Positions 16,005-54,099 are shown, counted from the first letter of the whole stretch. The stretch is 63,416 nt of DNA, filler included, from Candidatus Woesearchaeota archaeon CG1_02_57_44 (GCA_001871415.1; 4 parts of 4 records of this genome joined end to end with filler, not necessarily neighbours in it), one strand, 5' to 3'. Notes: a model not told the origin generated them from the letters alone. Numbers and translations are program-made.

Positions 16005-16104
16005 NNNNNNNNNNNNNNNNNNNNNNNNNNNNNNNNNNNNNNNNNNNNTTAATTAATTAANNNNNNNNNNNNNNNNNNNNNNNNNNNNNNNNNNNNNNNN
16101 NNNN
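16005..16104. other. Artificial contig-joining linker (N44-TTAATTAATTAA-N44)
   Basis: Six-frame stop linker; identical at all three gaps. Confidence 0.98.
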
Positions 16105-20600: not shown

Positions 20601-23600
20601 TGCCGTCGTAGCATTCTCCGTGCGTCAGCCCCGCCTGGGCATCATCCTGCTGTTCATCGCCCTTGGACTTGCGGGTCAGGGCCTGACAGGGCATGTCATC
20701 GCCACGCTCGAGCCTGGAAATGGCGGCTCCATTACCCTCGCGTTCCATGAGAATAACAGCATCCCTGTGGGGAGCCGCGTGGAGATATTGCTCGCCGACC
20801 AGACCGGCGTGCTGCAGCTGATAAACAAGAGCATCCTTGATTTCCAGGACCAGGTCAACGCGTCCTACGGTGAGGTCATAACCGATGGCTCACCCTGGGG
20901 TTTTGAGGACCATGTGTTCACGCCCGCAGATATCACCCTGCTGCTCAATGACTACCTTAACCTCAGCCTTCCACCAGGAATATACACTATTGCCATGGAA
21001 GCCTATTATAACAATGGCTCCTGGCGGCGCAGCCTGGCCAATGCCTCAGCGCCGTTCAGCATCGGCCTTGCCAAGGGCGCGGTAAGCACCCAGCCCGGAG
21101 CGCATCCGTTCTGGACGCCTGATCAAAATCCCGTGACGTGCGAACTCGCTGGCGATCATTGCGATGTCACCTGGGAAGTCAACGCGACAAGCAGAGGAAC
21201 GTATGAGTTCTACCTCATCGTCGCAGGAACCCAGGGGCAGAACGTGCAGGAAGGCGCGGCGTCTGTACTCAGCCAACGCGTCAATATCACGGTGTCGCGC
21301 ACAGCAGAGGATCATCTGCCCCCAACGATTCTTGACCTTGGAAATTCCACAGGCCAGGACATTCGCATCACCTGGCGAACTGATGAGCAAGCTACGACGA
21401 ACGTCAATTGGGGTCGCTCGACCGCCATGGGCTCCATCGAGCAGGGCACACGCGGCAAGATGCATGTATTCTCACTTCCCAGGACGGTCGGCCTGACATG
21501 GTATAATATCACCAGCTGTGATGACCAAAACAACTGCATAACCCTGGGACCATTCAGCGTCAACGCAAAGCCCCTGACCCGGCCTCAGGTCAGCCTGCCC
21601 CCGCAGGCCGAGCGCGCGCTGCAAAAAGACCAGAGTTTCGCGTATGAGGTGAGCTCAGACTCTGACCTGCAGGACTGCCGGCTGTATATCGACGGAAACC
21701 TGACAGAGCTTACCACAGAAGTGCGCAAGGGCTCTCGTCAGGTCCTGCGCACGACATTGCAGCCAGGCAGATACAACTGGAGCGTGTCCTGCCTGGATGC
21801 CGCTGGCATGGAAGCGAACACGAGCGGAGTAAGGACAATCTTCGCTCTGCAGGGCTTTGACGGTGAGACGACAGCGATAGCGGACGTGCCAACGCTTGAC
21901 TCCGTCTCAAATCTACGCCTGGAAAAACTGGGCAATGGTCGCGTACGATTCAAGGAGCCAGTCAATCTGAGCGAAGGACTTGATTTCGAAAGCATGGTGC
22001 ATCTGGAACACAACCGCATCGAAATCAACACCAGTGCAGCACCGGCACTGAATGTCTCGGCCGAGCTGACGCTCAAAGACGTGACATTCGCCAATCCGCT
22101 CATCCTTATGGACAACGCGCCCTGCCCGACAGACGTCTGCTCGCAGCCCTGGCTGATAGGCAATGACCTTTACTTCAATGTCTCGCACTTCACAACATTC
22201 AGCGCGACTGAGCAGACAAATCTCACCATCTGGTGGAGCAACAGCACGGACAAGTGGGGCGCAAGTCAGGTGACGTTCTATGCAAACTACACCAATGTGT
22301 CCAGCAGCCAACCCGTCCTGGGCGACGGTGTCTACTGTCAGGTGCGTGTCAATACCACTGGTGACTTTGGCGCATGGACCAACATGACCTGGGACGCATC
22401 CAACCTCTACTGGAGAAACACCCAGACGATCGATGTCGATGGGCAGGACCAGGTGCTCTGCGACGGCACGGCTACCGGGCATGCGCGCCTGAACGCGACC
22501 GACCGCTTCAACCTGACCGCGCAGGGCGGTGTGCAAAGCGGTGTCGCCCCCGTGGTCACGCTCATCCGCCCGGACAATGGCGCAGTCATCGCGAAGAACT
22601 ACACCTGGTTGAACTTCAGCGCATCAGACCCTGAGTCAGACGTCTATACGCTGCGCGTCTATGTCGGCAATGCAACGGACCCTATCCCCAATCGCCTGGT
22701 CTACATCAACAAGACGAACGCAGCGATCAGCGCCTTCAACTACAATCTGACGGCGTTGCCGATCCAGAATGGAACAGGCGGCCCTATCATGCTGCTGCAC
22801 TTTGACAACCTATCGGAGATGAAGGAGAACGGGACCGCAGTGTATGACTGGGCCAGCAAGAACGCGGTCTACGGCAGCTGCAACCAGAGCGGCTATGGGC
22901 TCATCTGCGGCACGTGGAACAACACCGGCAAGTTCGCCGGCAACTACGCGTTCAATGGGTCCAACCAAGCGTGGCTCTTGCCGCTCGCGTCCAACAGGAT
23001 GAACAATGTCAGCATCACCATCTGGGCCAACCTGGAGACGACCAGCCAGAAGGGCGCCTTTGTGAAAGTTGGCTCAGGCAACAATGGATACGGCATCGGC
23101 GTAGGAGGCGACAACTTTGATGGCACAGGAAATGACCTTATCGCCCTCTACGAGGGCGTCGCATGGTATGACTCCAATGTCAACATCGGCACGGGCTGGC
23201 ATCATATCGCCATGGTGCTCAACGCGACGGACATGCTGCAGCTATACATCGACGGGATTATCGCCGCGTCCTGGCAGACAGGAGGAGGCACCACCCCCAC
23301 CATGCAGATCCGCGCAGGGGGTTACACCGCGGACGGCCCGTATCTCCGCTTCTTCCAAGGCAGGCTCGATGAGTTCGCCATGTGGAACCGTACGCTCACA
23401 CCAGAGGAGATACGGCAGATGGCAAGAGCGCCGGCAGGCACCTACTACTGGCGGACCAACGCCACGGATACGACCGGCAATAGCAATACCTCCACGAGAA
23501 GCTTCGTCCTGGGAAGCACAGGAAGCAACGGCACAGGCACATGCCTCGCCTTGAACAATTGCGTGCTGGGTGACGCCTGCGACATCACCACGAGCTGCGA

Positions 23601-26600
23601 TCTCTACGGTCGCCTGAGATTCACCCGGTTCAACATCAGCAACAGCGCGACCGTCACGGTGCGGCCATATGACCTGCGCGGCTATGACCCCGCGACAGGT
23701 CTTGCCAATACGAGCATGGGTTGGAACTATACCGGCTTATTAGACATCGAGGCGCAGAGCATCATCATCGCGAGCGGAGCCACCCTGACCGCCAATGGCT
23801 CAGGCTATCCGCTCAATGCATCCAATACCGTCGGCCTCGGCCCGGGGGTAGGACAGTACTACAGCACGCAGACCACGGGAGGAGGCGCGGGCCATGGCGG
23901 CATCGGCGGCATCGGCGATCTCAACAATAAACTGGTCTCTACCGGAGGCAACAGCTATGGCCTCGCAGCGGCCCCCACGACCTTGGGCAGCTCAGGATCA
24001 GGCACCGGGAGCCAGCAGGGATCAGGCGGAGGAGCAATCAAGCTCAACGCCACGAGCGTGACCATCTCCGGCAGCGTCCAGGCATCCGGCCAGCCGGGCA
24101 TCGATCGCGCGTCTGGCGGGAGCGGAGGAAGCATCTGGATAGTGGCAGGCGCATTGACCGGAAGCGGCAGCCTCAATGCAAGCGGTGGCGAGAATCAGGC
24201 CAATGCCAACTACGGCGGCGGGGGCAGCGGAGGACGCATCGCAGTGCATACCTCATCCTATGCCTTTACCGGCAGCTACGTCGCGTATGGCGGACAGGGC
24301 GACAGCAACAGCCACGCAGGCCAGAACGGCACGGTCATCGTGCTCGACCCTGCGACCATGGATGTTTTGCTGCCGGGCACGTTCACCTTCAGCGCCAATG
24401 AAGGAATCAACCTATCCCTGCTGCCCAAGACCGACGGGGTCTATCAGTTCCGCAATCTCAATATCACGGGCACGGCTGTCGCGCTCTCCAACTGGACCAA
24501 CATGACCAATGGCAGGGGGCCCACTATCCTCACGAGCGGCAATACCACGATACTCGGCGCGCTGGTCGCGGACCAGCGGGGATACAGAGCCAGCGACACC
24601 AGCGCCAGCGACGGCTATGGCCCGGGGAGAGGTGTCTACTACAGCACCTGGGGGCGCGGCGGAGGCGCAGGCCACGCCGGATTCGGCGCTGCGGGCGACC
24701 GGGACAATGAGGTGCCATCCGCAGGAGGCAATATCTATGGCAGCGCCCTGGAGCCCACGCAGCCCGGCAGCTCCGGCGCAGGAGTCTCTGTGCATGTCAA
24801 CACCTACGCGGGCGGCGGTGGCGGCGTCATCCTGCTCAATGTGTCAGAGAGGCTGGTGTTGCAGGGATCGCTGAGCGCCAGCGGAGAGCCGGCGACGAGC
24901 AGCACCTACGGCGGCGGGTCCGGAGGAAGCATCTGGCTCATCGCCGACAGCATGGACGGCAATGGGAATATCACGGCAGCAGGAGGAAACGGCGGCGGAT
25001 CCAGCAGCTACGGAGGTCCCGGCGCAGGAGGACGCATCGCTATCCATTACACGACCCGCTATAATTTCTCCGGCCTGTTCAATACCAGCGCAGGCGCCGC
25101 GTACGCCAATACACGGGGCGCCATGAACGGCACGGTGCTCGTCATCCAGCGGTCGACCGGCAACGCCATATTGCCTGAACATTTCATCTTCGACCCTCTC
25201 AGCGGCATCAGCAAGACGCTCACGCCGAGCACAGACGGCACCTACTATTTTGGTGAGCTGAACATCTCCGGCGTTGCATGGGCATTGACCAACTGGACCA
25301 ACACGACCAATGGCAGAGGCCCGGTCATCATGGTCAGCGGCAACAGCACCCTCTTAGGCCGTCTGCTCTCCGATGGACTTGGCTACGGCAGGTATGACAC
25401 CAGCGCGAGCGATGGGTATGGTCCCGGTGGCGGCATGTACAGCAGCACCACCGGCAGGGGCGGCGGCGCTGGGCACGCAGGGTACGGTGGCGTGGGTGAC
25501 AAGGATAATGCCCTGACCACGCTCGGCGGGAACATCTACGGCACTCCCCTGGAGCCAACGCAACCCGGGAGCAGCGGCGGCGGAGTGCACACCCATGGAA
25601 ACTCGTACTCCGGGCGCGGGGGCGGCGCATTCATCCTCAACGTGACCGGCCGCCTTATCATGGATGGAGCGCTGGCCGCTGACGGCCAGTCCGCGACCAG
25701 TACCCAATATGGCGGCGGCGCGGGCGGCAGCATCTGGCTCATCGCAGACAGCGTGGATGGCCGGGGCACTATCACTGCCACAGGGGGCAGGGGCGGCGGA
25801 TCAACCAGCTATGGCGGATCAGGATCTGGTGGACGCATAGCCATCCACTACACCACGCGATACAACTTCACCGGCAGCTTCAACACCACCGCCAACCCGG
25901 GATATCCAAATACCGGAGGGGCCATGAACGGCACGGTGCTGGTCATCCAGCGCACGACAGCAGACGCTATCCTCCCCGAACATTTCCTCTTCGACGCACT
26001 CAGGGGCATCGATGTTACGCTCGCGCCCGCCACGGATGGAGAATACCATTTCGGCACCCTGAACATCACCGGTATCGCATGGGCCCTGCCGAACTGGACC
26101 AACCCGACCGACGGCAAAGGGCCTGCCATCATCTCGACGGGCGACGTGACCGTGACCGGCCAGCTGCTGGGCGACAGGACAGGATACTTCAATGCCACCA
26201 CCGCCGCAACCCATGGATACGGTCCTTCGCTCGCGGCCTATTACGTGACCAGTGGCAGGGGTGGGGGCGCCGGCCACGGCGGCTATGGCGGCAACGGCGA
26301 CACCAGCAATCCCACGGTCACCAAGGGCGGAAGCATGGTCGGCTCACCACTGCGTCCGGTGCAGCCGGGCAGCAGCGGAGCCGGTATCGGTGTGCACGGC
26401 TCAACCGCGGCAGGCAGAGGCGGAGGCGCGATAATCATCAATACCACCCAGACCCTGACGATGGCCGGCAACATCAGCATGACAGCGGCCAGCGCAGGGG
26501 CGAGTCAGTATGGCGGCGGAGCGGGCGGCAGCATCTGGCTCATTGCGGACAGCGTTGCCGGCAGCGGCATGCTGATGGCCTCTGGCGGAAACGGGGGAGC

Positions 26601-29600
26601 CAGCAGTGGCATGGGCGGCGGCGGCGCAGGAGGAAGGATAGCCATCCACTACGCCAGCTCCTATGGCTTCACCGGCACCTTCAACACCACCGGAGGCATC
26701 GCCAGCACGAATTCATGGGGCGGCGATAACGGCACGGTGATCGCCATCAATCCTGCGACAAGAGATGCGTTCCTGCCCGCTGACTTCATATTCTCTGCCA
26801 CCGACGGCTGGGATGACACGCTGCAGGAGGATACGACTGGGCGCTTCAGCTTCGGAGCGCTCACCCTCCGGGAGAACGCCACGGTCTGGTCATACGGCAA
26901 CTGGACCAACACGACCAATGGCCGCGGTGTCCGCATCTTCGCCTCCTCCATCGGTGTAGAGGACTACGCGCGGATGCTGGCAACAGGCCAGGGCTACAGG
27001 AATGAGACGACCGCCGCGGCGGAGGGACTGGGCCCCGGACGTGGAGGCTACCGGGGGACGAGCGGCGCTGGAGGCGGGGCAGGCCACGGCGCGATGGCGT
27101 TGTTTGGGGACACTGATTCCCGGCTGGAGTCACCAGGCGGCGCGATCTATGGCATCGCCATCGAGCCGACAGAGCTGGGCTCATCGGGAGGAGGCACCGG
27201 CATACACAGCACCAATGTGGCAGGCAGAGGCGGGGGCGCGTGGTACCTGAACGCCTCTGGCGCCATCGAGGTCAACGGGACCATCGCTGCCGACGGCCTC
27301 AATGGCACGTATCGCTATGGCGGCGGCGCGGGTGGAAGCGTCTGGCTCATTGCCCAGACCATCAACGGGACGGGCAACGTGACCGCGGACGGCGGCGGGT
27401 CTGTCGGCGACAGCAACTACGGCGGCGGAGGCGCAGGCGGTCGCATCGCCATCCATTACTCGTCCGGCGCAGCGCCCCTGGGCATTGGGGTCTCTGCTAC
27501 CGGCGGCATGGGAGGAGGCGCACGCCCCTCGGACAATGGCACTGTGCTCATCGTCAACAGGCAGACCAGCGACGCCATCATCGCGGGGCCCTTCAACCTG
27601 GAGGCAACCTCCGGCATAGACAGCGCGCTTGCCCCATCCACAGACGGCGTCTATCACTTCCATAACCTGAACGTCACGGGCTCCTCGGTGGTGGTCTTCA
27701 TGTCCAATTGGACCAACAGGACCAATGGGCGCGGTCCTGCGCTGGTCCTGTCGGGCAATCTCACTGTCGACAGTGCGGCGATGCTCACCGCGGACCGCCA
27801 CGGCTACTTCAACATGTCGACCGCCACCATGGCTTCAGCTTTCCCCGGCGGAGGCAACCGGTCAGGATCCGACGGGGGCGGCGGCGGCGCGCTGGGAGGC
27901 GTCGGTGGTGTGGGGTACACATCAGAAGGGAACTCCAATGGGGGTGAACCGCATGGCGATATCATCAGGCCGACCAGCCTCGGCGGTATGGGCGGCGGCA
28001 CTGCGGTGCATTCCTCGAATTATCTGGGCAGGGGCGCTGGCGCGATGCAGCTGAATGTCAGCGGCATCGCGAGGATCTCCGGCACCCTGAGCGCGTCAGG
28101 CCAGCACGCCACCTACCGCTACGGCGGCGGATCGGGCGGCAGCATATGGCTCATAGCAGGCTCGGTGCTGGGCTCGGGCATGATCAACGCCACCGGAGGC
28201 AATGGCGGCGGTGACACAGGCATCGGCGGAGGCGGCAGCGGCGGTCGCATCGCGATATACTCGTCCAACAATTCCTATACCGGTTCACTGCTCGTAGAGG
28301 GAGGTCTTGGCTCAGGCAACAGCTACCCCGGTCAGCGAGGCACCATCTACCTCTGCACCAACCTGTCAGGGCAATGCCCCGGAGGAGTCAGTCCCACGCT
28401 GAACTCATCATACGACATCAACACGACGGTCAATCTCAGCAGGACGATTACTGCATGGTCGAGCAGCAGCATGCTGTGGAATGATTCCTCATCCAACCTC
28501 AGCAATGTCGGCTACTACACGGTTGGCGGCCTGAGCGCCAGCAGCCCGTACCAGATCCTCAATAATTCCGACCTGCGCCTGCCGGTCACCACTGACGGTG
28601 GCGGAGCGTTGGCTACCTTCAACGTGTCGCTCGCCCTTGCCGCAAGCATCCAGGTGGAGCCAAAGCCCAATTCGGCGCCATGGGTGTCGATCACCGCTCC
28701 TGCCAACAACTCAGGGACGTCAAGCGCATCGGTCTTCTTCTCCTGCAACGCAACGGATGATACAAGCCTTGCCAACATCAGCCTGTACATATGGAACCGG
28801 ACAGGCCTTGTACATACCAATACGACTCCCATTGAAGGCGCAGGCAATGCGACCAACTGGACCGTGGCGCTGCCTGCCGCCGAGCTCTACACCTGGAACT
28901 GCCTCGGCCAGGACACGGGAAGCGCCCAGAACTTCTCCATCTATAACTACACCTTCCTGTTCCCGGGCAACATCACCGCGTCAGGCTTCACGGCGCCCTC
29001 CTCTGCGACCGTCGACACACTATTCAACGTCACCGCGAACATCACCTGCGCCGGCGGCTACTGCCATAACATCACACTCACCCTGCAGGACCTGAATGCC
29101 TCCACCTGGAACGCGTCATGGGCCTATCGCCACCAGGTCAATGTCTCGCTATCCTATGGCACAGGCCCCAGGAACTACACGGTGCGCCTGGACCTGAACG
29201 CAACCAGCATCGGCTCTACCTTCGACTGGTCTGACGCCTGCACTGACCTTCGCATACTCAACAGCACCATGGACGGCCACCTGCCCTACTACATCCAATC
29301 CTGCGACAGCTCGGCCCAGACGGCCGTTGTCTATGTGCGCGTCCCTGACAATCTCACGACGCAGGGCACGATCCTCAATCTCTACTACGGCAGCGGTAAT
29401 CCGGTCAATGTCTCGGACCTGAACGCCACCTTCGACACGCTTGGCAACTGGTATGAGCATTGGGCGTACAACGACACCGCGGACTGCAGCGGCCCCGAGA
29501 ACTGGACCAGGATACACTACGACCAGGGTCTCTGGCCGATCGCTGCCGATGTCCAGTCAGACACCTGGAGCGGGGACAACACGGATTACCGGCTGCGAAG

Positions 29601-31595
29601 GCCCATCTACCTGCCGACCGTCTCCGGCTCTGTCATCCACGCGGTCAGCGACGACGGCATCTGGGTCTACAGCGGCGACGGGCAGCTTGTCGGCAATGCC
29701 GGCGGGACCTCCTGCCACGCGGGCGGGACCTCCAACCAGGACTGGAACATCACGAAGAACCTGACCGTGGGCGTCAATGTCATCGGGCTGTGGTGCTCAG
29801 AGGCAGGCGGTGGCGAGAACTGCCAGGTCACGTCCTGGGATGTGCCGGGCGCCTATCGGATGCAGAACATCCCGACGCCACCGTCGGTGAGCTTCCTCGG
29901 TGCCACGGCGGAGGGCGCGGTCAGCTCTGAGACCACCCAGACACCGTCGTATCTCGTGCAGGGGCCCCGGGGGACCGACAATCCTGCCACCATAACCCTG
30001 GAGAGCGGGCAGGTCTACCAGGTCAACTGGACGCTCAACGCCTCTGGCAGCATCGGCGATGTCATGACCTACGCGGTGCTGGCCAACGTCACCCTGCTCC
30101 AGCAGGACGGCACCTACGCTGTCGCGACAGTCAGCACGCAGACAGCCAACGTATCGGCCCCTGTCCCGGACATATCGATCATGGGCCCTGGCGATCTGCG
30201 CGGATCAAACACCCCGAACGTCACGTTCTGGTACAATGTCTCAACAACAGCACCAAACAATTGCTCGCTCTTCATCAACGGCATCAGGAACGCGACCACG
30301 GACAGCCCAAGCATAGACACGCCACTCTCCTGGTCTGTGATCAACCTACCGGTCGGTCCACTCAATTGGAGCGTCAACTGCACCGCTGACACTGAAGCCA
30401 ACAGCAGCGTCTTTTCGCTCACCATCTTCAACCAGCCGCATACCTACGCCGGCCAGACCACCAACCTCAGCCAGGTGCAGGATATACGCGCGGTCGGCAA
30501 CCTGACCGCCGAGGTCCCCCAGACCGCATTGATCAAGTGGAACGAGCCGGTCAATCTCATCAATGGCACCAACTTCGCGCTGCAGGTCAATATGTCGCCC
30601 AACCAGGTCGCGCTGAACAGCTCAGGTATCCTGCTCCTCAACACCTCCGCGCAGCTGACGCTCTTTAACCTGACCTTCGCGTCGGCGGCGATATTCCACG
30701 ACGGACAGGCCTGCACCGCGACGACGTGCAGTGACAAGATCTATTCGGGAGGCAATCTCACCTTCAATGTCACCGGGTTCTCCAGCTACAGCGCGGCCGA
30801 GGAGGCCAACCTCACCATCTGGGACGATACTGACACGCTGGACATCAACCGCAACCGCAACATCAGCTTCTATGCCAACTACACCAACATCACGAGCGGA
30901 GCGTTCATCAACGCTTCAGGGACCTACTGCGAGATCGCGTTCAACCTCACTGGCGATTGGAGCTCCTATGAGAAGATGAACATGAGCACACTCGTCGCGC
31001 TCTACAACTACACCCGGCAATTCACGCAGACCGGTGTCTATTCGTACAATATCCTCTGCAATGCCAGCGTCATGGGGCACGCCATCCTCAACGCGACCGA
31101 CGGCCTCGCGGTCAATAACACGGCACCATGGGTCGTCCTGCACCTGCCTGTCAATGGTAGCAATGTCACGCTCTCGCATGTGCGGCTTAATATCACGGCT
31201 AATGATACGGATGGTGATGTCTATCTGTTGCAGGTGTGGGCCGGCAATGCTTCGCCCTATGGGCTTGTCTTTCAGAACGTGACCGGGGGCCTGCAGAATA
31301 TCACGTACAACTTGACGGCGGTGCCGGTGGCGCCGGGTGAGGATGATCTGGTGCTTCTCTTGCATTTTGACAACTTGTCCAACCTTGGAGAGAATGGCAC
31401 ACGCATGGTGGATTCCAGCGGGAAGGGCAACAACGCCACCTGCGTGCAGACGGGGTATGGCCTGCACTGCCCAGCCTACAATAATGCGAGCAAGTTTGCG
31501 GGTGGTTATGCGTTTAATGGCATCAATCAGTCTTTGGTTGTTGCTGATGATGATACGTTGAATATGAGCAGGCTTTCGGTGGCTGCGTGGGTGTG
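17686..31595 (+). CDS. Giant (>4630 aa, 3'-truncated) membrane-anchored surface protein/adhesin with Ig-like, LamG, six Gly-rich repeats and a DUF2341-like domain
   Basis: Uninterrupted 13.9-kb ORF. TMs at ~18520-18580 and ~20560-20700. LamG motifs (LLHFD, WHHIA, FQGRLDEFAMWNRTLT) at ~22790-23430 and from ~31345. Six GG(S/A)GGS(I/V)W repeats. WAYRHQVNV...VYVRVP...LYYG at ~29100-29400. Very dense N-x-S/T sequons. Confidence 0.9.
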
Positions 31596-31695
31596 NNNNN
31601 NNNNNNNNNNNNNNNNNNNNNNNNNNNNNNNNNNNNNNNTTAATTAATTAANNNNNNNNNNNNNNNNNNNNNNNNNNNNNNNNNNNNNNNNNNNN
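31596..31695. other. Artificial contig-joining linker
   Basis: N44-TTAATTAATTAA-N44. Confidence 0.98.
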
Positions 31696-33808: not shown

Positions 33809-35155
33809 ATGCTCCGCATCATCGCCCTTGGCGGCTACGCTGAGATGGGCCGCAACATGACTGCTGTCTTCTGGAACGACCAGGGTGTCATCCTGGACTG
33901 TGGTCTGCACCTGGAAAACTACATCCGGCTCACTGAGGAAGATGACCTGAAGGTCATGAGCACCAAGCTTCTACAGCAGGAAGGTGCCATCGCTGATCTG
34001 ACTCCCCTTGGCAAGGACCGAAAGAAGATACTCGCCATCGTCCCCAGCCACGCGCACCTGGACCACATCGGCGGCCTGCCGTATCTGGAATCCAAGTTCG
34101 ACGCGCCCATCATCTGCACGCCCTTCACCGCTGCGGTATTGCGGGGCATGGTCGGGGACAATAAAAGTGGAAGGGGAGGGAACGGGCGAGGTGAGCTTCG
34201 CAATGACATCATCACGGTGCAGCCGGGCGCAAGCCACAAGCTGACAGAAGACATCACCATCGAGTTCATCCGCGCCACGCACAGCACGCCGCATACAGCG
34301 ACCATCGCCATCCACACGCCTGACGGGGTCGTCATCTACGCCAATGACTTCAAGTTCGACCTGCACCCCACGTTGGGCCCGAAGCCCGATTTCGCACGGC
34401 TCAAGGCGCTGGGCAAGGCAGGCGTCAAGGCCTTCATCTGCGAGTCCACCTACAGCAATCTGGAGCAGCGTATGCCCTCGGAGAGCATCGCCAAGCAGAT
34501 GCTCGAAGACATCCTGCTCGGCCTTGACCATAAGAACAAGGCCATCATCGTCACCACGTTCAGCAGCCACATCGCGCGCCTCCGGGCCATCTGCGACTGC
34601 GCCAAGAAGATACACCGCACGCCGCTCATCGTGGGCAGATCGCTCTCACGCTACATCGCGGCAGCAGAGGAGTGCGGCATCACGAGCTTCAAGGACGCGG
34701 AAGTAGTGCGCTACTCCAGCAAGGCAGCGCGGCGGCTTCGCAAGGTGCTCGCAGAAGGCAAGGAGAAGTATGTCCTGGTGGTCACCGGGCATCAGGGCGA
34801 GCCGCGGGCAATACTGTCCAGGATGGTCTCTGAGCAGATAGACTGGCGCTTTGACCCGAATGACTGCGTCATCTTTAGCTGCAAGGTCATCCCCACACCA
34901 ACCAATGAAGCCAACCGGGCAAGGCTCGAATCCAGGCTACGGGATTTCAATGTCCGCTTCTTCAAAGACATCCATGTATCAGGACACGCCGCCCGCGAAG
35001 ACCTGCGTGAGATGCTCACCATGCTCAAGCCGGAGCACCTGTTCGCCAGCCATGGCGATAAGAAGATGCAGGCAGGGCTTGCCAGCCTAGCGGCAGAAGA
35101 GCATATGCAAAAAGTGCACCTCCTGGCCAATGGTGGTCAGATGGAGCTCGCATAG
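33809..35155 (+). CDS. rnj: Ribonuclease J (beta-CASP metallo-beta-lactamase)
   Basis: GGYAEMGRNMTA, SHAHLDHIG, THS, DFKFD, TTFSSHIARL, HVSGHA. Confidence 0.95.
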   Translation: MLRIIALGGYAEMGRNMTAVFWNDQGVILDCGLHLENYIRLTEEDDLKVMSTKLLQQEGAIADLTPLGKDRKKILAIVPSHAHLDHIGGLPYLESKFDAPIICTPFTAAVLRGMVGDNKSGRGGNGRGELRNDIITVQPGASHKLTEDITIEFIRATHSTPHTATIAIHTPDGVVIYANDFKFDLHPTLGPKPDFARLKALGKAGVKAFICESTYSNLEQRMPSESIAKQMLEDILLGLDHKNKAIIVTTFSSHIARLRAICDCAKKIHRTPLIVGRSLSRYIAAAEECGITSFKDAEVVRYSSKAARRLRKVLAEGKEKYVLVVTGHQGEPRAILSRMVSEQIDWRFDPNDCVIFSCKVIPTPTNEANRARLESRLRDFNVRFFKDIHVSGHAAREDLREMLTMLKPEHLFASHGDKKMQAGLASLAAEEHMQKVHLLANGGQMELA

Positions 35156-35190: not shown

Positions 35191-35937
35191 ATGAAACTCA
35201 CTCTTGCGGAGCCCTCTCTGCTCAAGGATAGCGTCTCTCTGATATCAGAACTGGTCAATGAGGCCAGTATCAAGGTCACTAAGGAAGGCCTTGAGGTCAT
35301 CGCCATGGACCCCGCAAATGTGGCCATGGTGGTCTTCAAGCTGCTCTCCCCCACATTCTCCGAGTACAATATCAAGTCTGATACCACCCTTGGCGTCAAC
35401 ATGGCCAACTTCAAGCAGATACTGCGCAGGGCAAGGCCCAGCGATGTGCTCACGCTTGAGATGGCTGACAAGGCGCGCCTGCAGATAAAGCTCAAGGGCG
35501 CGTCCACCCGGACATTCTCGCTTCCTATCCTTGAGATGGGCGATGCTGAGCAGAAGGTCCCTGACCTGAAGTTTCCGGTGGTCATCAAGACCATGGCCTC
35601 GGTGCTCTCCGATGCCATTGATGACGCTGACGTGGTCGCAGAGGCGGTCAGCTTCATCGCGCAGGAGAAGAAGTTCACCATCTCAGCCGAGGGCGACCTG
35701 TCTGACGCCACGGTCGAGATACCTGCCAGCGAGCAGACCAAGATAACCATGGAATCCGACAAGCCGCTCAAGAGCAAGTACTCGCTCGAATACCTCAAGA
35801 AGATGGCCGGCGGCTCCAAGCTCGCGGACGAGGTCACTATCAGCTTTAACAAGGACTACCCGCTGCGCCTGGACTATCTCTCTCTCAATAAGCTGCAGCT
35901 CAGCTTCATCCTCGCTCCGAGGGTGGAGCATGACTAG
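35191..35937 (+). CDS. pcn: PCNA / DNA polymerase sliding clamp
   Basis: AMDPANVAMV, YSLEYLKKM, DYPL and C-terminal FILAPRVE. Confidence 0.97.
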   Translation: MKLTLAEPSLLKDSVSLISELVNEASIKVTKEGLEVIAMDPANVAMVVFKLLSPTFSEYNIKSDTTLGVNMANFKQILRRARPSDVLTLEMADKARLQIKLKGASTRTFSLPILEMGDAEQKVPDLKFPVVIKTMASVLSDAIDDADVVAEAVSFIAQEKKFTISAEGDLSDATVEIPASEQTKITMESDKPLKSKYSLEYLKKMAGGSKLADEVTISFNKDYPLRLDYLSLNKLQLSFILAPRVEHD

Positions 35938-36035
35938 GCGGGGAGCGCGCTTTGTCCTGATTCTTCTCGTATCTTCTGTGTTATTCTCCTGTTTATACAC
36001 ATGTTTTTTATCTCTCACCTTTATTCCTCCGGCCT

Positions 36036-37412
36036 ATGCCTATCGAGGACTATGAGCCCATCGTACAGCAGTGCGCGCGGCGTTATGCTAGGGATCCTGA
36101 ACTGAGAAGCGAGTATGCACAGCTTGTCCGCATTGCCATCTGGCTCGCGTTGGAGAAGGATCCTTCGCTTCCAGAGAATCATGCAATTGTCATCGGCCGT
36201 AGTGCCATCTTTCATATGCTCGAGAAGCAAGAGAGACAGAAGCGGACACCGCCAGGAGGGGCTCTGCTTGAGCTGCAGGCGCCCCTCTTCGAGACAGGGG
36301 GGCTTACTGTCGAGGATTCTGTGGGTAGGTCAGATTGTCCGGGGCATGGACTTCTGCTCGCAGAAATGCACGAGCAGCTTCGTTCGCGATTCGGCAGGTA
36401 CTATTCTCAGGGTATTGCGCAGTCAGGGCTGCGTGGCATCCCGCAGGCCATCGTGCGCACAACCCTCGAGCAGGTCGCGGGCATCGACCCCCACAATACG
36501 GACTCCTACGCAAATTTCCAATTCTTTGCTGAACATGGTCTGCATCCATTGCTTCGAGCGTTCTTCCGTGGCAGCTACCATGTCGCATTGTCTGCATGCT
36601 ATCCTGATTTTTATGTCCCCTGGATGGGTAGTAATGTCCCTCCTGATTACTGGTCAGGACGTTATTCCATTCAGCATGCGACAAAAGCCATGCAATGGTT
36701 TTGCGATCTTCACGACCTCACCACTGTTGGACAGGCACGCTCTGTCGTCACTATGTCCAACCTCAAAGCCTCGGGTCTTGGAGGACTCGCTGCCCATTAT
36801 CATGAAAATACCGCCCGTCTCATCCAGCTTGTGTTCTCAGAGGCCAGACCTTGGCGTCTCAAGCATGTCCCTCATGGATTTTGGGATTCAGATGACAACC
36901 GCTTTGATGCGTTGGATGATTTTCTGCAGCATGTTGGCTGCGGTTCCATTGTCGGGTTGACCCCTGAAGCAACCTATGACAAAGAACTTAAGAAACGCGT
37001 CTCCCGTCGCACCTTGACAGGTTTTCACCTCTCCAACCTGCTGGCCTCCCAATATGACGGCCGGCAATACGATATGTTCCATGATATTTTCCCTGGGCAG
37101 ATTCTTCCTTGGACACTGGCGCAAGTACGCATCTCTTCCTGGCCGGATGCACAAGAAGTCGGCGTCAATGCCATGCGCTGGGTGGTTGAGGATTACCTTG
37201 GCCTATCTTGCGAGGAATTGCCAGCTGTGTTGACTGATCGCCTAATGAAAGCGCTTGGTTTCTCTGGCATCATGCGAAACCCTGTCTTCGGGTTCGAGAA
37301 TTCCCCTTTTCGTATAGCCGACGCGCTCTATCCCGGCACATTTACACCTGATGATTTCAGCCGCTTTCGGCCATGCAGCAGGATACCTGACTGCGGTTAT
37401 CTCTCTTCTTGA
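36036..37412 (+). CDS. Sigma70 region 2/3-like N-terminal domain fused to DUF4046-like repeats (paralogue A)
   Basis: YEPIVQQCARRY...EYAQLVRIAIWLALEK...KR...LELQAPL...LTVEDSVG, then repeated PW...VPxx(Y/F)W units. Codons more T-rich than the neighbours. Confidence 0.7.
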   Translation: MPIEDYEPIVQQCARRYARDPELRSEYAQLVRIAIWLALEKDPSLPENHAIVIGRSAIFHMLEKQERQKRTPPGGALLELQAPLFETGGLTVEDSVGRSDCPGHGLLLAEMHEQLRSRFGRYYSQGIAQSGLRGIPQAIVRTTLEQVAGIDPHNTDSYANFQFFAEHGLHPLLRAFFRGSYHVALSACYPDFYVPWMGSNVPPDYWSGRYSIQHATKAMQWFCDLHDLTTVGQARSVVTMSNLKASGLGGLAAHYHENTARLIQLVFSEARPWRLKHVPHGFWDSDDNRFDALDDFLQHVGCGSIVGLTPEATYDKELKKRVSRRTLTGFHLSNLLASQYDGRQYDMFHDIFPGQILPWTLAQVRISSWPDAQEVGVNAMRWVVEDYLGLSCEELPAVLTDRLMKALGFSGIMRNPVFGFENSPFRIADALYPGTFTPDDFSRFRPCSRIPDCGYLSS

Positions 37413-37428
37413 TGCTCTATAGTTGAAG

Positions 37429-37592
37429 GGCTCTCTCCTGAATCTCGTTTGACATATGCCAGCAGCGGGCTTGGGCAGCGTTCCCACCAGTGACACATTG
37501 ACATCCCCGGAGGGGGCATCCCCCTGTCAATGCGCAAAATCCAACACATCAGCCTTCGCAATTGCTGCTGGCTGGACTCTTAGGACAGAGCC
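37429..37592. mobile_element. 164-bp MITE-like element with GGCTCT(C/G)TCCT/AGGACAGAGCC terminal inverted repeats, copy A
   Basis: Closely similar to 49574-49736; nested stems GCCAGCAGC/GCTGCTGGC and TTGACA/TGTCAA. Confidence 0.8.
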
Positions 37593-37790
37593 GATCCGCA
37601 CATATCGGACAATTCAAGTGTACGATAAAAACGTACGACTGAAAGCCTGACTTTTTGTCACTGTTTGGAGTGTCGACAAATTGTCGATGTTTCCAGGGTT
37701 AGAAATATGAGTCGTACCCATTTTGGGTACAGTTGAAAAGGAGGGGGACAAATTGTCCCTATGAACGTAATGCGGGTTATTTGATCCGCC
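37592..37790 (+). repeat. Array of 6-7 different short AT-cored palindromes with ~26-bp period
   Basis: Palindrome centres at 37602, 37628, 37654, 37680 (exact 26-bp steps), then 37722, 37752 and ~37780; semi-conserved 3' tail YRNYTS(R/C)A in units 1-5. Confidence 0.75.
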
Positions 37791-38101
37791 TCAGAATCCC
37801 TGTGACAAATCCTTCTGTGTCTTTTATTCTACCTCTCACACAGTAATTGACAGAATTAGATAGGATACATAGTTTGTTCGCCTCTATTGTACAAATGTCA
37901 TCAAATTTCGAAAAACATTTTTACATTAGCCCTTTTCAACGCTTAAAGCCTTGAATAAGACTAAGCAGGCGCAGGATGAGTGAGGGCACGTCTGTATCGC
38001 CCACTCATTCCTCTCTTTGCTCCTCATAGCGGGTCTTGTCTCCTCTCTTGCTGATATTTTCAAAAGTTTTTTTATGTATCTTTTTTTACTGTTGCTTTCG
38101 T

Positions 38102-39490
38102 ATGCAGGTCGAAGACTATGAACCCATAGCGCAGCAGTGCGCCAGGCGTTACGCCTCAGATGATGCTGAACGCGAAGAGCTGGCGCAGCTTGCGCGTATC
38201 GGCATCTGGTTGGCTCTGGAAAACGATGCCTCGTTGCCAAGAGCGCATGCGGTCACTGTAGGGCTCGACGCTATCCGTGCCAGTTTCCGGAAGCAGAGCG
38301 CTAGGATGAGGACGCCTCCTGGCGGAACGCTTCTTGAATTGCAGGAGCCGATATCTGATGATGGCTCGCTGACGCTTGAGGACGTTGTCGGCAAGGATGA
38401 TGGTCCTGGTCAGGATGAGCTGCTCGCTGAGTTGCACGTCCAGCTGCGCTCTAGGTTCTGCGCAAGGTATATGATGAATATCAAGCAATCTGGGCTCAGG
38501 GGTATTCCGCAGGCCATCGTCCGCGCGACCATCGAGCAGGTAGCAGGGCTTTCTCCTGACGACACCAATGCCTATGCGAACAGCCAGTTCTTCATCGACC
38601 ATCATCTGCGTCCCTTGCTGAAGATATTCTTCAATGACAGTTATCATGATGCACTGAGCGCTGCATATCCTGATACTTATGTCCCCTGGATGGGCAAGCA
38701 AGTGCCTGACGGCTACTGGTCTGGACGAGGTGGCAAAGCGCACGCGAGGAAAGCAATGCGATGGTTCTGTAACGCGAAAGGCATCAAGTCCACGGAAGAT
38801 GTACGCGATGTGTCTATCCAGGATTTTGTTGATGAAGGCCTCGGTGGGCTCATCTTTCATTACCGCTACAACATCAATCGCGTCATGCAACTGGTCTTTC
38901 CAGAGAGCAGGCCCTGGCGGCTCAAGAGCGTTCCTGCTGGCTTCTGGGATACACTGGACAACCGCAGAGACGCCCTCGATGATTTCCTTCAGCACATCGG
39001 CTGTGGCTCTATCATCGGTCTCACGCCTGAGGAGACCTATGACCGCGGTCTTAAAAAGAGAGTATCAGGGTCAGCTCTCAAGGATTTTCATCTTTCTTAC
39101 CTTCTGCTGTACCAATACAGGGGCAGGCAATACAACTTATTTCACGACCACTTCCCTGAGCAGATCCTGCCATGGACCTTGGCGAATGTGCGACTGGCAA
39201 ATTGGCCTGATGCCGTAGAGGTGGGGGTCAATGCGATGCGATGGGCTCTGGAGGACTACCTCGTGGTCACTGTCGAAGAAGTCCCTCAGGTCCTTACTAC
39301 GCGGCTGATACGTGGGCTTGGTTTGACCGGTATCTTCACGAATCAGGTATTCGGGTTCGATAGTTCTCCATTCAAGGTCGCGGATACGCTCTATCCGGGG
39401 ATTTTCACGCCGTATGACTTCCGAAGAAAGCGGCCAGGCATACGAGTGCCTGACTGCGGGTATCTGCACATGATACAGCACGAGTCATGA
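38102..39490 (+). CDS. Sigma70 region 2/3-like plus DUF4046-like repeat protein (paralogue B)
   Basis: Colinear with paralogue A over the full length (MQVEDYEPIAQQCARRY...LELQEPISDDGSLTLEDVVG...PDCGYL). Start placed at ATG 38102 by alignment. Confidence 0.7.
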   Translation: MQVEDYEPIAQQCARRYASDDAEREELAQLARIGIWLALENDASLPRAHAVTVGLDAIRASFRKQSARMRTPPGGTLLELQEPISDDGSLTLEDVVGKDDGPGQDELLAELHVQLRSRFCARYMMNIKQSGLRGIPQAIVRATIEQVAGLSPDDTNAYANSQFFIDHHLRPLLKIFFNDSYHDALSAAYPDTYVPWMGKQVPDGYWSGRGGKAHARKAMRWFCNAKGIKSTEDVRDVSIQDFVDEGLGGLIFHYRYNINRVMQLVFPESRPWRLKSVPAGFWDTLDNRRDALDDFLQHIGCGSIIGLTPEETYDRGLKKRVSGSALKDFHLSYLLLYQYRGRQYNLFHDHFPEQILPWTLANVRLANWPDAVEVGVNAMRWALEDYLVVTVEEVPQVLTTRLIRGLGLTGIFTNQVFGFDSSPFKVADTLYPGIFTPYDFRRKRPGIRVPDCGYLHMIQHES

Positions 39491-39547
39491 TCCGCTCCTG
39501 CTCGTCCATACACACTTTTATAAGCCAAAAGCAATGCCTCAAGACGT

Positions 39548-42226
39548 ATGACCGACTATTACGCCATGAGCGCTGACGCGGCCATGCGTGACCTTGGCAG
39601 CACGCCCTCCGGACTGAGCCACGGCGAGGCGCTGCGCAGGCTTGGCGAATACGGGCCAAACGCGCTCAGGCGCGGCAGGCGCACCAGCATGCTCGCGCTC
39701 TTCTTTCAGCAGTTTTCCAATGCGCTGAGCATCCTGCTCGTGTTCGCGGGTGTCCTGTCATTGTTCCTCGGCGAGCACGTGGAAAGCGTCGCCATCTTCG
39801 TCATACTGCTCCTGAATGCCCTCCTTGGTTTTGTGCAGGAATACCGCGCTGAGCGCGCCATGGAGAAGCTTCAGGAGCTGTCCGCCAAGAGCGCGCGGGT
39901 GCTGCGCGACGGCAAGGAACATAAGATAGAAGCCGCACATGTTGTCCCTGGCGATCTGCTCATCCTGGAGGCCGGAGATATCGTCCCCGCGGACGCAAGA
40001 CTCATCTCTGTCGCGAGCATGCAGATAGACGAAGCAGCACTCACTGGAGAATCCGTTCCCAGCAAGAAGATCATCCTGCCCTATCCGGAGGGCACCAGCA
40101 TCACGGATCAGGAGAACATGGCGTTCATGGGGACCAGCGTCACCTATGGCAAAGGCAAGGCGATCGTCACGGCCACAGGCATGAGCACGGAGTTCGGCAA
40201 GATAGCAGAGTCGCTGGAAGACGAGGACGTCCCGCAGACGCCATTGCAGAAGAAATTCCAGGCGCTCGCCGGGCAGATAGGAAAGCTCGCGGTCGTGCTC
40301 ATCATCATCGTGCTCATCGCGGGCACCCTGCACAAGACGGTCAGCTTCCTTGACATGCTGCTCTTCGCGCTGGTGCTGGCGGTAGCCACCATCCCTGTCG
40401 CCTTGCCCACCATCGTCACCATCGGGCTATCGCTCGGAGCCAAACGCCTCGCAAAGAAGAATCTATTGGTCAAGCGATTGCCCGCAGCCGAGAGCCTCGG
40501 CGCGGCGACCATCATCGTCTCTGACAAGACCGGCACCATCACCAAGAACCAGATGACCGTGACCACCATCTATGATGGACATAAGAGCATCTCGGTGACG
40601 GGCACCGGGTATGTTCCTGAAGGGACATTCTCCTCACCTGCTCCTGAGATACTGCTTCGTATCAGCATGCTCTGCAACAACGCCAAGCTTACGGAATTGC
40701 AGGGCAAGCATGGCATCATCGGCGATCCCACTGAAGGCGCGCTCATCGTGCTGGCTCGCAAAGCAGGTCTTGATGATGGAATCTACGAACAGTATCCGCA
40801 GGAGCGGGAACTTCCCTTCGACTCTGATCGCAAGATGATGAGTGTCATCTGCCGGCAGGGCAAGACGCTTGAGGCGTATGTCAAAGGCGCGCCTGATCTG
40901 CTCTTGGCTGCCTGCGATCGCATATGGGACAAGGGCTCGGTTCGGAAGATGACTGATGCTGACCGCAAGCGCATCCTTGACGCCAACCAGCGCATGGGCG
41001 AGCAGGCGCTGCGCGTGCTCGGGTTCGCCTATCGCCCCCTGCATGGGCACAGGACGGCACACCGAGAGGGCGCGGAGGCAGGAGACGACGAATTCACTCC
41101 TGCCAGCGTCGAGCGCGAGCTCATCTTCGTAGGCCTCGCGGGCATGATAGACCCTCCGCGCGACGAGGTCGCAGGCGCCATCGCAAAATGCCACAGCGCG
41201 GGCATCAGGGTCATGGTGGTCACGGGTGATCATTCTGTGACAGCCAAGGCCGTCGGCGAGCGCATCGGGCTCATGCAGGAAGGTGACGCAGTCATCACAG
41301 GCGAGGACGTCGAGCGCATGAGTGACCAGGAACTGCGGCATGCGCTGGCGTCGGTACGCATCATCGCCCGCGCCATGCCCTTGCAGAAGCTTCGCATCGT
41401 CACCGCGCTTCAGCAGGAAGGGCACATCGTGGCCATGACCGGCGACGGGGTCAATGACGCGCCCGCGCTCAAGAAGGCGGACATCGGCATCGCCATGGGC
41501 ATCACCGGCACCGACGTGGCCAAGGAAGTCGCCAAGGCGGTGCTGGTGGACGATAACTTCGCCACCATCGTCAATGCCATCGAAGAAGGCAGGGCAGTCT
41601 ATGACAAGATGATACTCTCCGCGCGCTACCTGCTATCGTGCAACAGCGGCGAGATCGGAGTGGTTCTGTTCTCCATCCTGCTAGGCATGCCCTTGCCATT
41701 GATACCCCTGCAGGTGCTCATGATTAACCTGTTGACTGATACGTTCCCTGCCATGGGGCTTGGTATGGAGAAAGGAGAAGATGATATCATGCGTCACAAG
41801 CCGCGTGATCCCCATGCACCGCCGCTCTCGCGCCCGACGCTGTATTCTATCCTATTCTTCGGGCTCATCATGGCGACGGGCACCTTGCTCGTGTTCAACG
41901 CCTACAGGTCTGACCTGACGCTCGCGCGCACCATGGCGTTCACCACGCTCGTGCTCTTCCAGATGTTCGCGGTCATCTCCGGCAGGACATTGCATCCGTC
42001 GCTCGCGCGGCTCAATCCGTTCACCAATCTCTGGCTCACGGGGGCTGTAGTGTTGTCTGTTGGCCTGCAGGTGCTGGTCGTGTACCTGGCGCCATTGCAG
42101 CAGTTGTTTGGCACGGTAGCGCTCAGCTCTCAGCATTGGCTCGTCATCGTCAGCGTGAGCAGCATCGGGCTCTTGCTCATGGAGCTGAGCAAATTCGCGC
42201 TGGGAAGGAGCGAAGCGAGGGCGTGA
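39548..42226 (+). CDS. P-type ATPase, P2A (Ca2+-type) subfamily
   Basis: TGES, DKTGT phosphorylation site, KGAPD, DPPR, TGDGVNDAPALKKADIG. TM4 reads PVAL instead of PEGL. Confidence 0.95.
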   Translation: MTDYYAMSADAAMRDLGSTPSGLSHGEALRRLGEYGPNALRRGRRTSMLALFFQQFSNALSILLVFAGVLSLFLGEHVESVAIFVILLLNALLGFVQEYRAERAMEKLQELSAKSARVLRDGKEHKIEAAHVVPGDLLILEAGDIVPADARLISVASMQIDEAALTGESVPSKKIILPYPEGTSITDQENMAFMGTSVTYGKGKAIVTATGMSTEFGKIAESLEDEDVPQTPLQKKFQALAGQIGKLAVVLIIIVLIAGTLHKTVSFLDMLLFALVLAVATIPVALPTIVTIGLSLGAKRLAKKNLLVKRLPAAESLGAATIIVSDKTGTITKNQMTVTTIYDGHKSISVTGTGYVPEGTFSSPAPEILLRISMLCNNAKLTELQGKHGIIGDPTEGALIVLARKAGLDDGIYEQYPQERELPFDSDRKMMSVICRQGKTLEAYVKGAPDLLLAACDRIWDKGSVRKMTDADRKRILDANQRMGEQALRVLGFAYRPLHGHRTAHREGAEAGDDEFTPASVERELIFVGLAGMIDPPRDEVAGAIAKCHSAGIRVMVVTGDHSVTAKAVGERIGLMQEGDAVITGEDVERMSDQELRHALASVRIIARAMPLQKLRIVTALQQEGHIVAMTGDGVNDAPALKKADIGIAMGITGTDVAKEVAKAVLVDDNFATIVNAIEEGRAVYDKMILSARYLLSCNSGEIGVVLFSILLGMPLPLIPLQVLMINLLTDTFPAMGLGMEKGEDDIMRHKPRDPHAPPLSRPTLYSILFFGLIMATGTLLVFNAYRSDLTLARTMAFTTLVLFQMFAVISGRTLHPSLARLNPFTNLWLTGAVVLSVGLQVLVVYLAPLQQLFGTVALSSQHWLVIVSVSSIGLLLMELSKFALGRSEARA

Positions 42227-42264: not shown

Positions 42265-42516
42265 TCATTTCTTGTAACTGTCGTTGGTCTCCATGACCTT
42301 GCGCATGCTCTCTTCCACTTTCGCGCTCATATTGTAGCCAAGCTTCTTGCAGTGCTTCCTGAAGTCAGCGGCGACCTTCTTGTCGATGGTGAAGTTCAGG
42401 CGCTGCTTCGTCTGCAGCCTACCTGTCTTCTCAAACTCCAAAAGGGCGTCAAATACGGGCTTGTCGCGCAAGGCGATAGCTTTTGCCAATCTCTGGAACT
42501 CATCTGATGGCGTCAT
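42265..42516 (-). CDS. Small ribbon-helix-helix-like protein, putative antitoxin
   Basis: KQRLNFTIDKKVAADFRKHCKKLGYNMSAKVEE beta-alpha-alpha pattern; overlaps the Fic gene end. Confidence 0.7.
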   Translation of the reverse strand: MTPSDEFQRLAKAIALRDKPVFDALLEFEKTGRLQTKQRLNFTIDKKVAADFRKHCKKLGYNMSAKVEESMRKVMETNDSYKK

Positions 42517-42841
42517 GGAGCATCTCCTCTATCTTTCGTATGCTTGTCACCTTTTTCAGTATCATCTTTGTGACCATCTCCAGTACCTTATCATCAAAGG
42601 TCGCATGACCTTCGTACTCCGCGTATGTCTTGATGAGAAGGGCCGCTGTCCTCTTGTTGCCTTCTTCGAACACATGGTCTAAGAGGATGGCACGCGCCAG
42701 ATATGCTAGTGCTTTCTGCCAATTCGATGTCTGTCGAGCGTAGGTGATGGCGAAATCAAGACTTGCTTCATTGTGCAGGCTGCCCTGGTCAAACTGTTGG
42801 TTGAGCGCGATTATGTCTTTTTTTGTCAGGGCAAACGTCAA
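42500..42841 (-). CDS. Fic/Doc-family toxin
   Basis: HVFEEGNKRTA matches the Doc-type HxFx(D/E)GNKR motif; 113 aa; TTG start ~26 nt after CTTAAATA. Confidence 0.88.
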   Translation of the reverse strand: MTFALTKKDIIALNQQFDQGSLHNEASLDFAITYARQTSNWQKALAYLARAILLDHVFEEGNKRTAALLIKTYAEYEGHATFDDKVLEMVTKMILKKVTSIRKIEEMLHDAIR

Positions 42842-53999: not shown

Positions 54000-54099
54000 N
54001 NNNNNNNNNNNNNNNNNNNNNNNNNNNNNNNNNNNNNNNNNNNTTAATTAATTAANNNNNNNNNNNNNNNNNNNNNNNNNNNNNNNNNNNNNNNNNNNN
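54000..54099. other. Artificial contig-joining linker
   Basis: N44-TTAATTAATTAA-N44. Confidence 0.98.

Follow-up and report, generated by a model that had tools for sequence, protein, structure and literature searches.

The stretch of DNA analysed here (the window, 63,416 nucleotides) comes from Candidatus Woesearchaeota archaeon CG1_02_57_44 (GCA_001871415.1; genome G000, 1.53 Mb, 82% complete). At positions 36036-39490 it contains two paralogous genes, here called A and B, whose products join a head resembling domain 2 of bacterial sigma-70 factors (sigma2) to four repeats related to the family DUF4046. The gene pair region lies whole on one contig of 22.3 kb (G000:C49). An original prediction, made from the sequence alone, had described the pair as sigma-like proteins of foreign origin, which might form one system with the palindromes and the mobile element between the two genes. 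In this study, it was found that the description of the proteins holds, while the three-part system is not supported. I tentatively read A and B as accessory transcription factors of the archaeon's own RNA polymerase, from a rare, sigma-derived family of DPANN archaea. The features of the two genes are as follows.

36036..37412, plus strand: paralogue A (458 aa), with a sigma2 head, an acidic linker and four DUF4046-like repeats
36036..36245, plus strand: sigma-70 region-2-like domain of A (aa 1-70; the Pfam stretch is 3-67, and it aligns with B)
36429..37394, plus strand: four-repeat DUF4046-like array of A (aa 132-453; by alignment, with repeat homology at the family level)
38102..39490, plus strand: paralogue B (462 aa), with the architecture of A
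38102..38311, plus strand: sigma-70 region-2 domain of B (aa 1-70; VIA-align superposition)
38330..38395, plus strand: region-3.2-like acidic motif of B (aa 77-98, LLELQEPISDDGSLTLEDVVGK; profile alignments to SigA)
38495..38731, plus strand: repeat R1 of B (aa 132-210), ending YVPW...VPDGYW
38732..38953, plus strand: repeat R2 of B (aa 211-284), ending RPW...VPAGFW
38954..39205, plus strand: repeat R3 of B (aa 285-368), ending ILPW...NW
39206..39436, plus strand: repeat R4 of B (aa 369-445), ending YPGIFTPYDF

Both ORFs (open reading frames) are intact, and an alignment of the two proteins over 456 residues shows 63% identity and one gap, of a single residue. Thus, there are two colinear paralogues of about 460 residues behind the PCNA gene, as predicted. 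The ORF of B as listed begins at a TTG (38036) upstream of the ATG at 38102; the start was set at this ATG because of the alignment with A and all relatives. Identity between the two genes is 69% at first, 76% at second and 40% at third codon positions. The nonsynonymous divergence (dN) is 0.33, and synonymous sites are saturated, leaving dS undefined (NG86). Purifying selection has acted on A and B since an old duplication, and an old, lineage-specific tandem duplication is the best explanation of the pair. The codons of both genes are richer in T than those of the neighbours, as had been noticed: third-position T is 0.31 in A and 0.26 in B against 0.11-0.15 in three neighbours, and the G+C content at third positions (GC3) is 0.547 in A and 0.611 in B against 0.780 for RNase J, 0.783 for PCNA and 0.775 for a downstream ORF, which I take to be P-type ATPase-like from reading its sequence. 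Ranked with the 927 ORFs of at least 250 aa in G000, the two genes belong to the lowest 2.7% (A) and the lowest 14.7% (B), so that their composition does look foreign.

The head was assessed with the Pfam model Sigma70_r2 (PF04542), whose cut-off is 24 bits. A six-frame search of G000 gave 27.0 bits for B, above the cut-off, and 20.9 bits for A. Among 27 relatives, 17 match the model at E<=0.1 and nine pass 24 bits, with a top score of 31.7 bits; three of the six genome-derived homologues also pass. In four of the ten relatives without Sigma70_r2 (P0020, P0021, P0026 and P0028), the match starts at query residue 98 or later, and thus the head is lacking there. When a 24-member family profile was compared with all PDB sequences, 28 of the 33 matches were sigma factors, and all lay within positions ~5-120, although the best E-value was only 0.005. 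NCBIfam gave only weak matches of B to SigF and SigB/F/G models, while PHROGs gave a match of P0004 to a sigma-factor phrog (E 7e-4) and otherwise noise. In alignments with SigA, the near-invariant head residues R15, Q29, W36 and R70 coincide with the signatures A-x-R-Y, D-L-x-Q-x-G and R-x-P.

The AlphaFold model of B (mean pLDDT, the predicted local distance difference test, 81) was compared with 48,161 PDB representatives using VIA-align. Residues 1-67 superpose on sigma domain 2 with Z 8.3-6.6 and a root mean square deviation (rmsd) of 2.2-2.8 Å over 63-68 residues. The best match is the N-terminal domain of SigE (Z 8.3, rmsd 2.7 Å, 67 aligned residues), and both E. coli sigma70 (1sig) and SigB reach Z 8.2. 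The top 15 rows hold 14 sigma factors; row 15 (3les) is an engineered scaffold whose alignment covers the residue numbers also covered by the Taq sigma-A entry (3ugo). Values of Z below 8 are common for helical models; the fold call carries weight because the match list is uniform and the sequence signal agrees with it. A Foldseek search of the PDB with the whole B model found no match at E<=0.001. The N-terminus therefore does model as a sigma2 bundle, and the sigma-70 region-2 module of the original prediction is borne out by the fold and by the family-level Pfam scores together.

Behind the head, the linker of B (aa 71-131) is poorly modelled, with pLDDT below 50 at residues 73-81, 96-104 and 121-131. 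The consensus of its motif, SLDxP...D..G, aligns with region 3.2 of SigA (SLExPIGEE...LxDFI; VSLETPIGEE..LGDFI), although the per-domain scores are weak (4-6 bits) and the motif is modelled as disordered. The region-3-like motif claimed earlier may correspond to region 3.2, at this low score. In bacterial sigma factors, region 4 is a helix-turn-helix (HTH) which reads the -35 element. In A and B, four repeats take its place, as had been supposed.

Each repeat unit of B has 74-84 residues and five or six helices in the model, and the units end in a P-W loop in three cases and a Y-P-G loop in the fourth. In HHalign comparisons made on slices of the family alignment, all six pairs among the four repeats matched (probability 84.5-98.8%, E 6.9e-6 to 6.3e-17), while each repeat against the sigma2 slice reached only 0.3-1.5% probability. 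The array is modelled with pLDDT 87.5. With the current Pfam model of DUF4046 (PF13255; gathering score, 22.8 bits), A, B, P0003 and P0004 all went unmatched in hmmscan at E<=1, and a six-frame search of G000 found nothing. A precomputed protein-database annotation, on the other hand, lists PF13255.12 for the same four proteins. An exhaustive phmmer search found 1,418 cluster representatives (50% identity) sharing the repeat region, and DUF4046 was present in 10 of 30 scanned repeat-bearing relatives at 27.6-73.6 bits. In the ESM Atlas, the repeat region falls among DUF4046 clusters (feature score 0.92, TM 0.55-0.67 over 211-277 residues), whose members are mostly from Bacillota, with some from phages and amoebozoans. 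The best match outside the family is P0005, from a metagenome-assembled genome of Chloroflexota. The array is probably a distant member or a sister of DUF4046, and the link as such is sound; the precomputed annotation, the scores of the relatives and the ESM Atlas all agree with the DUF4046-like remainder that the earlier reading had proposed. The N-terminal HTH of TetR and FF domains were considered as the repeat fold and set aside, since their VIA-align Z of 3-4 was too weak. A full-text literature search for DUF4046 found no paper.

Elsewhere, such repeats are fused to transposase-type HTHs (P0056, P0103), sigma4/HTH (P0090), ARID (P0101), Sigma70_r2 (P0025, P0088) and DUF559, and P0092 is named a Vsr endonuclease by its source. 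In the family, the repeat region has a median isoelectric point (pI) of 9.0 and a net charge of +6. By analogy with these fusions, the repeats are probably a targeting module and may have a nucleic-acid role; the case for DNA recognition is circumstantial.

How widespread is this architecture? The family profile matched 18 of the 301 genomes that were surveyed in the phylum. End-to-end copies occur in six of them, two in G000 and one each in G293, G294, G057, G140 and G129. The copy in G073 is an internal ORF of 414 aa, in which the N-terminus before the repeats is shorter and gives no Sigma70_r2 match at E<=0.001. The 11 further genomes have repeat-only matches, and repeat-only proteins occur in bacteria and phages too. 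The sigma2-plus-repeat architecture is thus rare (6-7 of 301 genomes), and no description of a sigma2-plus-DUF4046 architecture was found in the literature searched. PCNA lies beside none of the homologues at six loci. As for a conserved partner, ORFs of ~100 aa upstream of the homologues in four loci were considered and rejected, being unrelated except within one genus. The neighbours of the homologues differ by genus: glycosyltransferase and UvrA, dCTP deaminase, NUDIX and ScpA, a HerA-like ATPase, or thymidylate kinase.

Sigma-like genes as such are common in this phylum. Sigma70_r2 was found above the Pfam cut-off in 129 of the 301 genomes (a count that includes one unpublished genome, G243), often in frames of 400-1,000 aa, and in none of four classical archaeal control genomes. 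Sigma-70 genes have been reported in DPANN archaea, particularly prevalent in Woesearchaeota, as fam00359 (Castelle et al. 2021, PMC8204110); the passage concerned states that no anti-sigma factors were identified and leaves the role open. Given this report and the 129 genomes, the presence of sigma-like genes in these archaea is known and common. Two more sigma-like genes are present in G000 itself, and in these Sigma70_r2 and Sigma70_r4_2 are both above their Pfam cut-offs.

G000:C40, locus L030:1165-1932, minus strand: further sigma-like gene
G000:C53, locus L033:700-2373: further sigma-like gene

One of them is an ORF of 255 aa and the other an ORF of 557 aa with a second weak region-4 match. 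An ORF ~550 bp from the gene on C40 presumably encodes Rpo7, judging by eye. Thus, the contrast drawn originally, that archaea use TBP/TFB and not sigma factors, fails in this phylum, as the survey, the published family and these two genes indicate.

The host itself is clearly archaeal. G000 (82% complete) has one Rpb1_1-type gene only, for an archaeal A' subunit, whose nearest relatives are named A' subunits of Woesearchaeota and Nanoarchaeota at 70-77% identity; the host is thus a DPANN archaeon. In the same assembly, no bacterial-type largest RNA polymerase subunit was found. A and B are physically linked to archaeal markers, since PCNA and RNase J lie on the same contig. TATA-like elements, read from the sequence, precede both genes.

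33809..35155, plus strand: RNase J-type beta-CASP nuclease, upstream of A
35191..35937, plus strand: PCNA, directly upstream of A (PCNA_N 1.7e-15, PCNA_C 7e-12)
35992-35999: second TATA-like element, TTTATACA, upstream of A
36003..36011, plus strand: TATA-like element GTTTTTTAT, 25-33 nt upstream of the ATG of A
38066..38075, plus strand: TATA-like element GTTTTTTTAT, 27-36 nt upstream of the ATG of B, with AAAAG before it

These are putative archaeal promoters. Since an element of the GTTTTTTAT type lies ~25-35 nt before each ATG, the TBP/TFB machinery probably reads both genes.

What might such proteins do in an archaeon? In bacteria, sigma domain 2 docks on the clamp helices of the beta-prime subunit through its region-2.2 helix, and the clamp coiled-coil of archaeal Rpo1N (A') is the homologue of these helices. 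It is possible, and I tentatively propose, that A and B are accessory factors of the archaeon's own RNA polymerase. The family would derive from a bacterial-type sigma-70 factor which kept domain 2 and the acidic region-3.2-like linker, lost region 4, and now carries four homologous five-helix repeats of ~80 residues, related to DUF4046, in its place. The sigma2 head would then dock on the clamp coiled-coil of Rpo1N, a target, either DNA or a partner protein, would be recognised through the repeat array, and A and B would each be transcribed from an ordinary archaeal TATA-type promoter.

Complex prediction with the archaeal polymerase, a check suggested from the start, gave weak support. Rpo1N residues 1-400 with B residues 1-130 scored 0.37, while the best of three controls scored 0.00. 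Agreement between the runs covers at least 52% of contacts, and the pLDDT of the partner is at least 59. In the calibration of the predictor, 116 of the 157 solved complexes passed the mark used for this score, as did 2 of the 215 mismatched pairs; of those that passed with scores of 0.60 or less, only 18 were among the 157 solved complexes, and both of the passing mismatches fell in this range.

Several points weigh against this proposal. The docking score is weak, and the pass may reflect only likeness or memory, because complexes of sigma2 with clamp helices have been solved. By hmmscan, B (23.4 bits) and A (16.7 bits) both stay under the Sigma70_r2 cut-off. No region 4 (PF04545/PF08281) was matched in A or B at E<=1, and thus the definition of a sigma factor does not cover them; a genome-wide PF08281 search found nine places in G000 and none within C49:4341-7792. 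The Y/W aromatic cluster of region 2.3 melts the -10 element in group-1 sigmas, and its conservation was not seen in the family alignment. For the repeat array, Foldseek against the PDB found nothing at E<=0.001, and the best VIA-align match (YqeY, Z 4.0) is too weak for a fold assignment. As whole proteins, A and B are acidic, with a pI of 6.0-6.1. The genes around the homologues at the six loci have no relation to transcription, and they are not conserved. Lastly, derivation of the head from the two sigma-like genes of G000 with regions 2 and 4 was considered and rejected, as BLASTP showed no significant similarity.

Alternatively, the proteins may bind nucleic acids without any polymerase, in that the DUF4046-like array does the work and the sigma2 head has been co-opted for helical DNA binding or a protein interaction. 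The repeats would fit this: they occur in ~1,400 cluster representatives, whose architectures are varied and mostly lack a sigma part, their partners include transposase-type HTHs, DUF559 (under the source name Vsr endonuclease) and ARID, and repeat-only proteins are found in the 11 further genomes of the phylum, in bacteria and in phages. The lack of conservation of the aromatic residues assigned to -10 melting would also suit it. However, selection across the family has kept the region-2.2 signature positions and the region-3.2-like acidic motif, and sigma regions 2.2 and 3.2 contact polymerase, not duplex DNA. The docking prediction, weak but positive, also argues for the polymerase. I regard this alternative as somewhat unlikely.

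The proposal of a polymerase-associated factor also has a stronger form, in which A and B are promoter-specificity factors: a bacterial sigma-type mechanism, with sigma2 docked on the clamp and the linker in the cleft, would have been moved onto the archaeal RNA polymerase, and the four-repeat array would read promoters in place of an HTH. This form is unlikely. If it were true, DPANN archaea would run a hybrid transcription with TBP/TFB plus sigma, and in DUF4046 there would be a novel class of DNA readers built from tandem repeats.

The spacer between A and B suggested another explanation, a self-regulating local system. It contains a miniature inverted-repeat transposable element (MITE) and a group of palindromes.

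37429-37592, strand not assigned: MITE of 164 nt with terminal inverted repeats GGCTCT(C/G)TCCT...AGGACAGAGCC
37620..37759: palindrome cluster, downstream of the MITE and upstream of B
37620-37636: weaker palindrome GTACGATAAAAACGTAC
37673-37687: perfect palindrome TCGACAAATTGTCGA
37714-37730: perfect palindrome GTACCCATTTTGGGTAC
37745-37759: perfect palindrome GGGACAAATTGTCCC

The MITE was found at eight other places in G000 at 87-95% identity, and of all nine copies, seven are full length and two partial. Its terminal inverted repeats are 11-13 nt long. The six other full-length copies have 9-bp target duplications (by eye, three perfect, two matching at 8/9 and one at 7/9), while the copy between A and B has none (3/9). 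A second copy on the same contig (49574-49736; G000:C49:17879-18041) is 93% identical and has a near-perfect 9-bp duplication. With at least nine copies at unrelated sites, it is a dispersed element rather than the specific partner of the genes that had been supposed, and the copy between A and B is an unrelated insertion, a passenger. Among the contigs listed from four groundwater runs, all break inside the MITE and none bridges it, and the read depth over it rises 4-8-fold. To the left and right of it, the depths are in agreement in each of the four runs (29.6/34.9, 7.6/5.7, 6.8/4.8 and 4.1/4.8). Thus, A and B belong to one population, while their strict adjacency rests on the original assembly.

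In the local system, A and/or B would bind the palindromes of the spacer and control B or an RNA encoded in the spacer. The cluster is indeed unusual: three perfect palindromes of 15-17 nt lie within 87 nt, and this is the only place in the 1.53 Mb of G000 with three perfect palindromes (stem of at least 7 bp) in 100 bp, against 624 such palindromes genome-wide, or 0.41 per kb. Two of them have the core GACAAATTGTC in common, and the cluster lies upstream of B. On the other hand, it lies 340-480 nt from the start of B, far from the TATA-like element, no such cluster was found beside the homologues at six loci, and palindromic sites would lead one to expect a dimer, of which the four-repeat array gives no sign. 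The only other copy of GGGACAAATTGTCCC in the genome (C32:561) was considered as a second operator site and rejected, since it lies inside a coding frame. The local system is therefore improbable. The most that the cluster may be is a local operator-like region, and it does not belong to what is conserved in the family. It is unique in G000 but absent at the six homologues, which by the refuting condition of the original prediction argues against a three-part system, and with the MITE a generic element, the proposal that genes, palindromes and MITE work as one finds no support. An Rfam scan over 35900-39600 gave no match at E<=1.

Two further observations were made around these spacer elements. 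The copy of GGGACAAATTGTCCC on C32 is held by an AT-rich ORF of 281 aa at the contig start (G000:C32:381-1226), presumably with a Bro-N-like N-terminus, by eye, and the ORFs that follow are, again by eye, presumably a ribosomal-protein / RNA polymerase subunit D cluster. A piece of ~130 nt in the spacer (37835-37965), which is present only once in G000, has a roughly 91-94% identical relative with different flanks in contigs from the groundwater runs X2, X3 and X4; this piece may be another small mobile element or a conserved non-coding element.

Could A and B instead act outside the cell, as effectors or decoys against the RNA polymerase of a bacterial neighbour or host? The sigma2 fold is built to bind bacterial beta-prime, so that the head might compete with the sigma factors of that bacterium, and the assembled 82% of G000 holds no bacterial-type polymerase of its own. 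DPANN archaea are also considered symbionts (PMC8204110). This explanation is nevertheless very improbable. There is no N-terminal signal peptide or delivery domain, because the sigma2 helix of the model begins at residue 3. No evidence for a bacterial partner was found, sigma-like genes are common chromosomal genes in the phylum, and no anti-phage or effector family was matched (none by PADLOC, and only the sigma-factor phrog plus noise by PHROGs).

That the pair is a decaying or functionless relic of horizontal transfer is hardly credible: atypical codon composition, the MITE next door and a patchy distribution would suit it, but both frames are intact, substitutions are mostly at third positions with saturated synonymous sites and dN 0.33, and the family is conserved over its whole length in many lineages, at 24-36% identity.

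Returning to the proposed polymerase-associated factor, several known systems can be compared with A and B. Bacterial sigma-70 factors of groups 3 and 4 (SigF/SigB/FliA-like and extracytoplasmic function factors) have the region-2 fold and the signature positions in common with them, and the acidic motif that follows in A and B may correspond to region 3.2. In contrast, A and B have a repeat array of 320 residues instead of region 4, no conserved region-2.3 aromatic cluster, and an archaeal host in which no bacterial core polymerase was found. The two other sigma-like proteins of G000, with regions 2 and 4, have no BLASTP-detectable similarity to A and B. The DUF4046 (PF13255) proteins, mostly from Bacillota, share the repeat unit by feature, structure and transitive sequence matches, but the bacterial ones are repeat-only proteins of 200-390 aa. 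TFE and Spt4/5 bind the Rpo1N clamp coiled-coil, which is homologous to the sigma2 site on beta-prime and is the site proposed here for A and B. The likeness to them would be a functional analogy only: they have no sequence or fold kinship with A and B, and the analogy rests on one weak docking prediction. The lineage is the same in fam00359 of Castelle et al. (2021, PMC8204110), which shares the puzzle as well, although the passage on that family does not describe the sigma2-plus-repeat architecture.

As far as the searches show, what is new here is the fusion of sigma2 with DUF4046, while the sigma-like proteins of DPANN archaea and the DUF4046 repeat proteins were each known already. Sigma factors mark a textbook divide between bacterial and archaeal/eukaryotic transcription initiation. 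The family separates the docking module of sigma from the DNA-reading module inside an archaeon, and since the docking half is isolated and joined to a repeat module, it lends itself to a clear test. Binding of the head to the archaeal clamp would mean that an initiation module of bacteria is able to work on the polymerase of an archaeon, whereas a failure to bind would mean a second role of sigma2 beyond transcription. From either outcome, DUF4046, with its ~1,400 cluster representatives in bacteria, phages and archaea, would gain a first functional handle.

Some minor features of the window may be added. The analysed sequence consists of at least four joined contigs, with runs of N at 16005-16104, 31596-31695 and 54000-54099, and thus the linkage across these three points is not real. 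On another contig of the stitched sequence, a single ORF of 4,653 aa spans 17686-31647 on the plus strand. A patch of lower GC content at 42265-42841 holds two short ORFs of 83 and 113 aa, which overlap each other on the minus strand. The larger one has an HxFxEGNKR-like motif which resembles that of Fic/Doc toxins, and the two may be a toxin-antitoxin pair.

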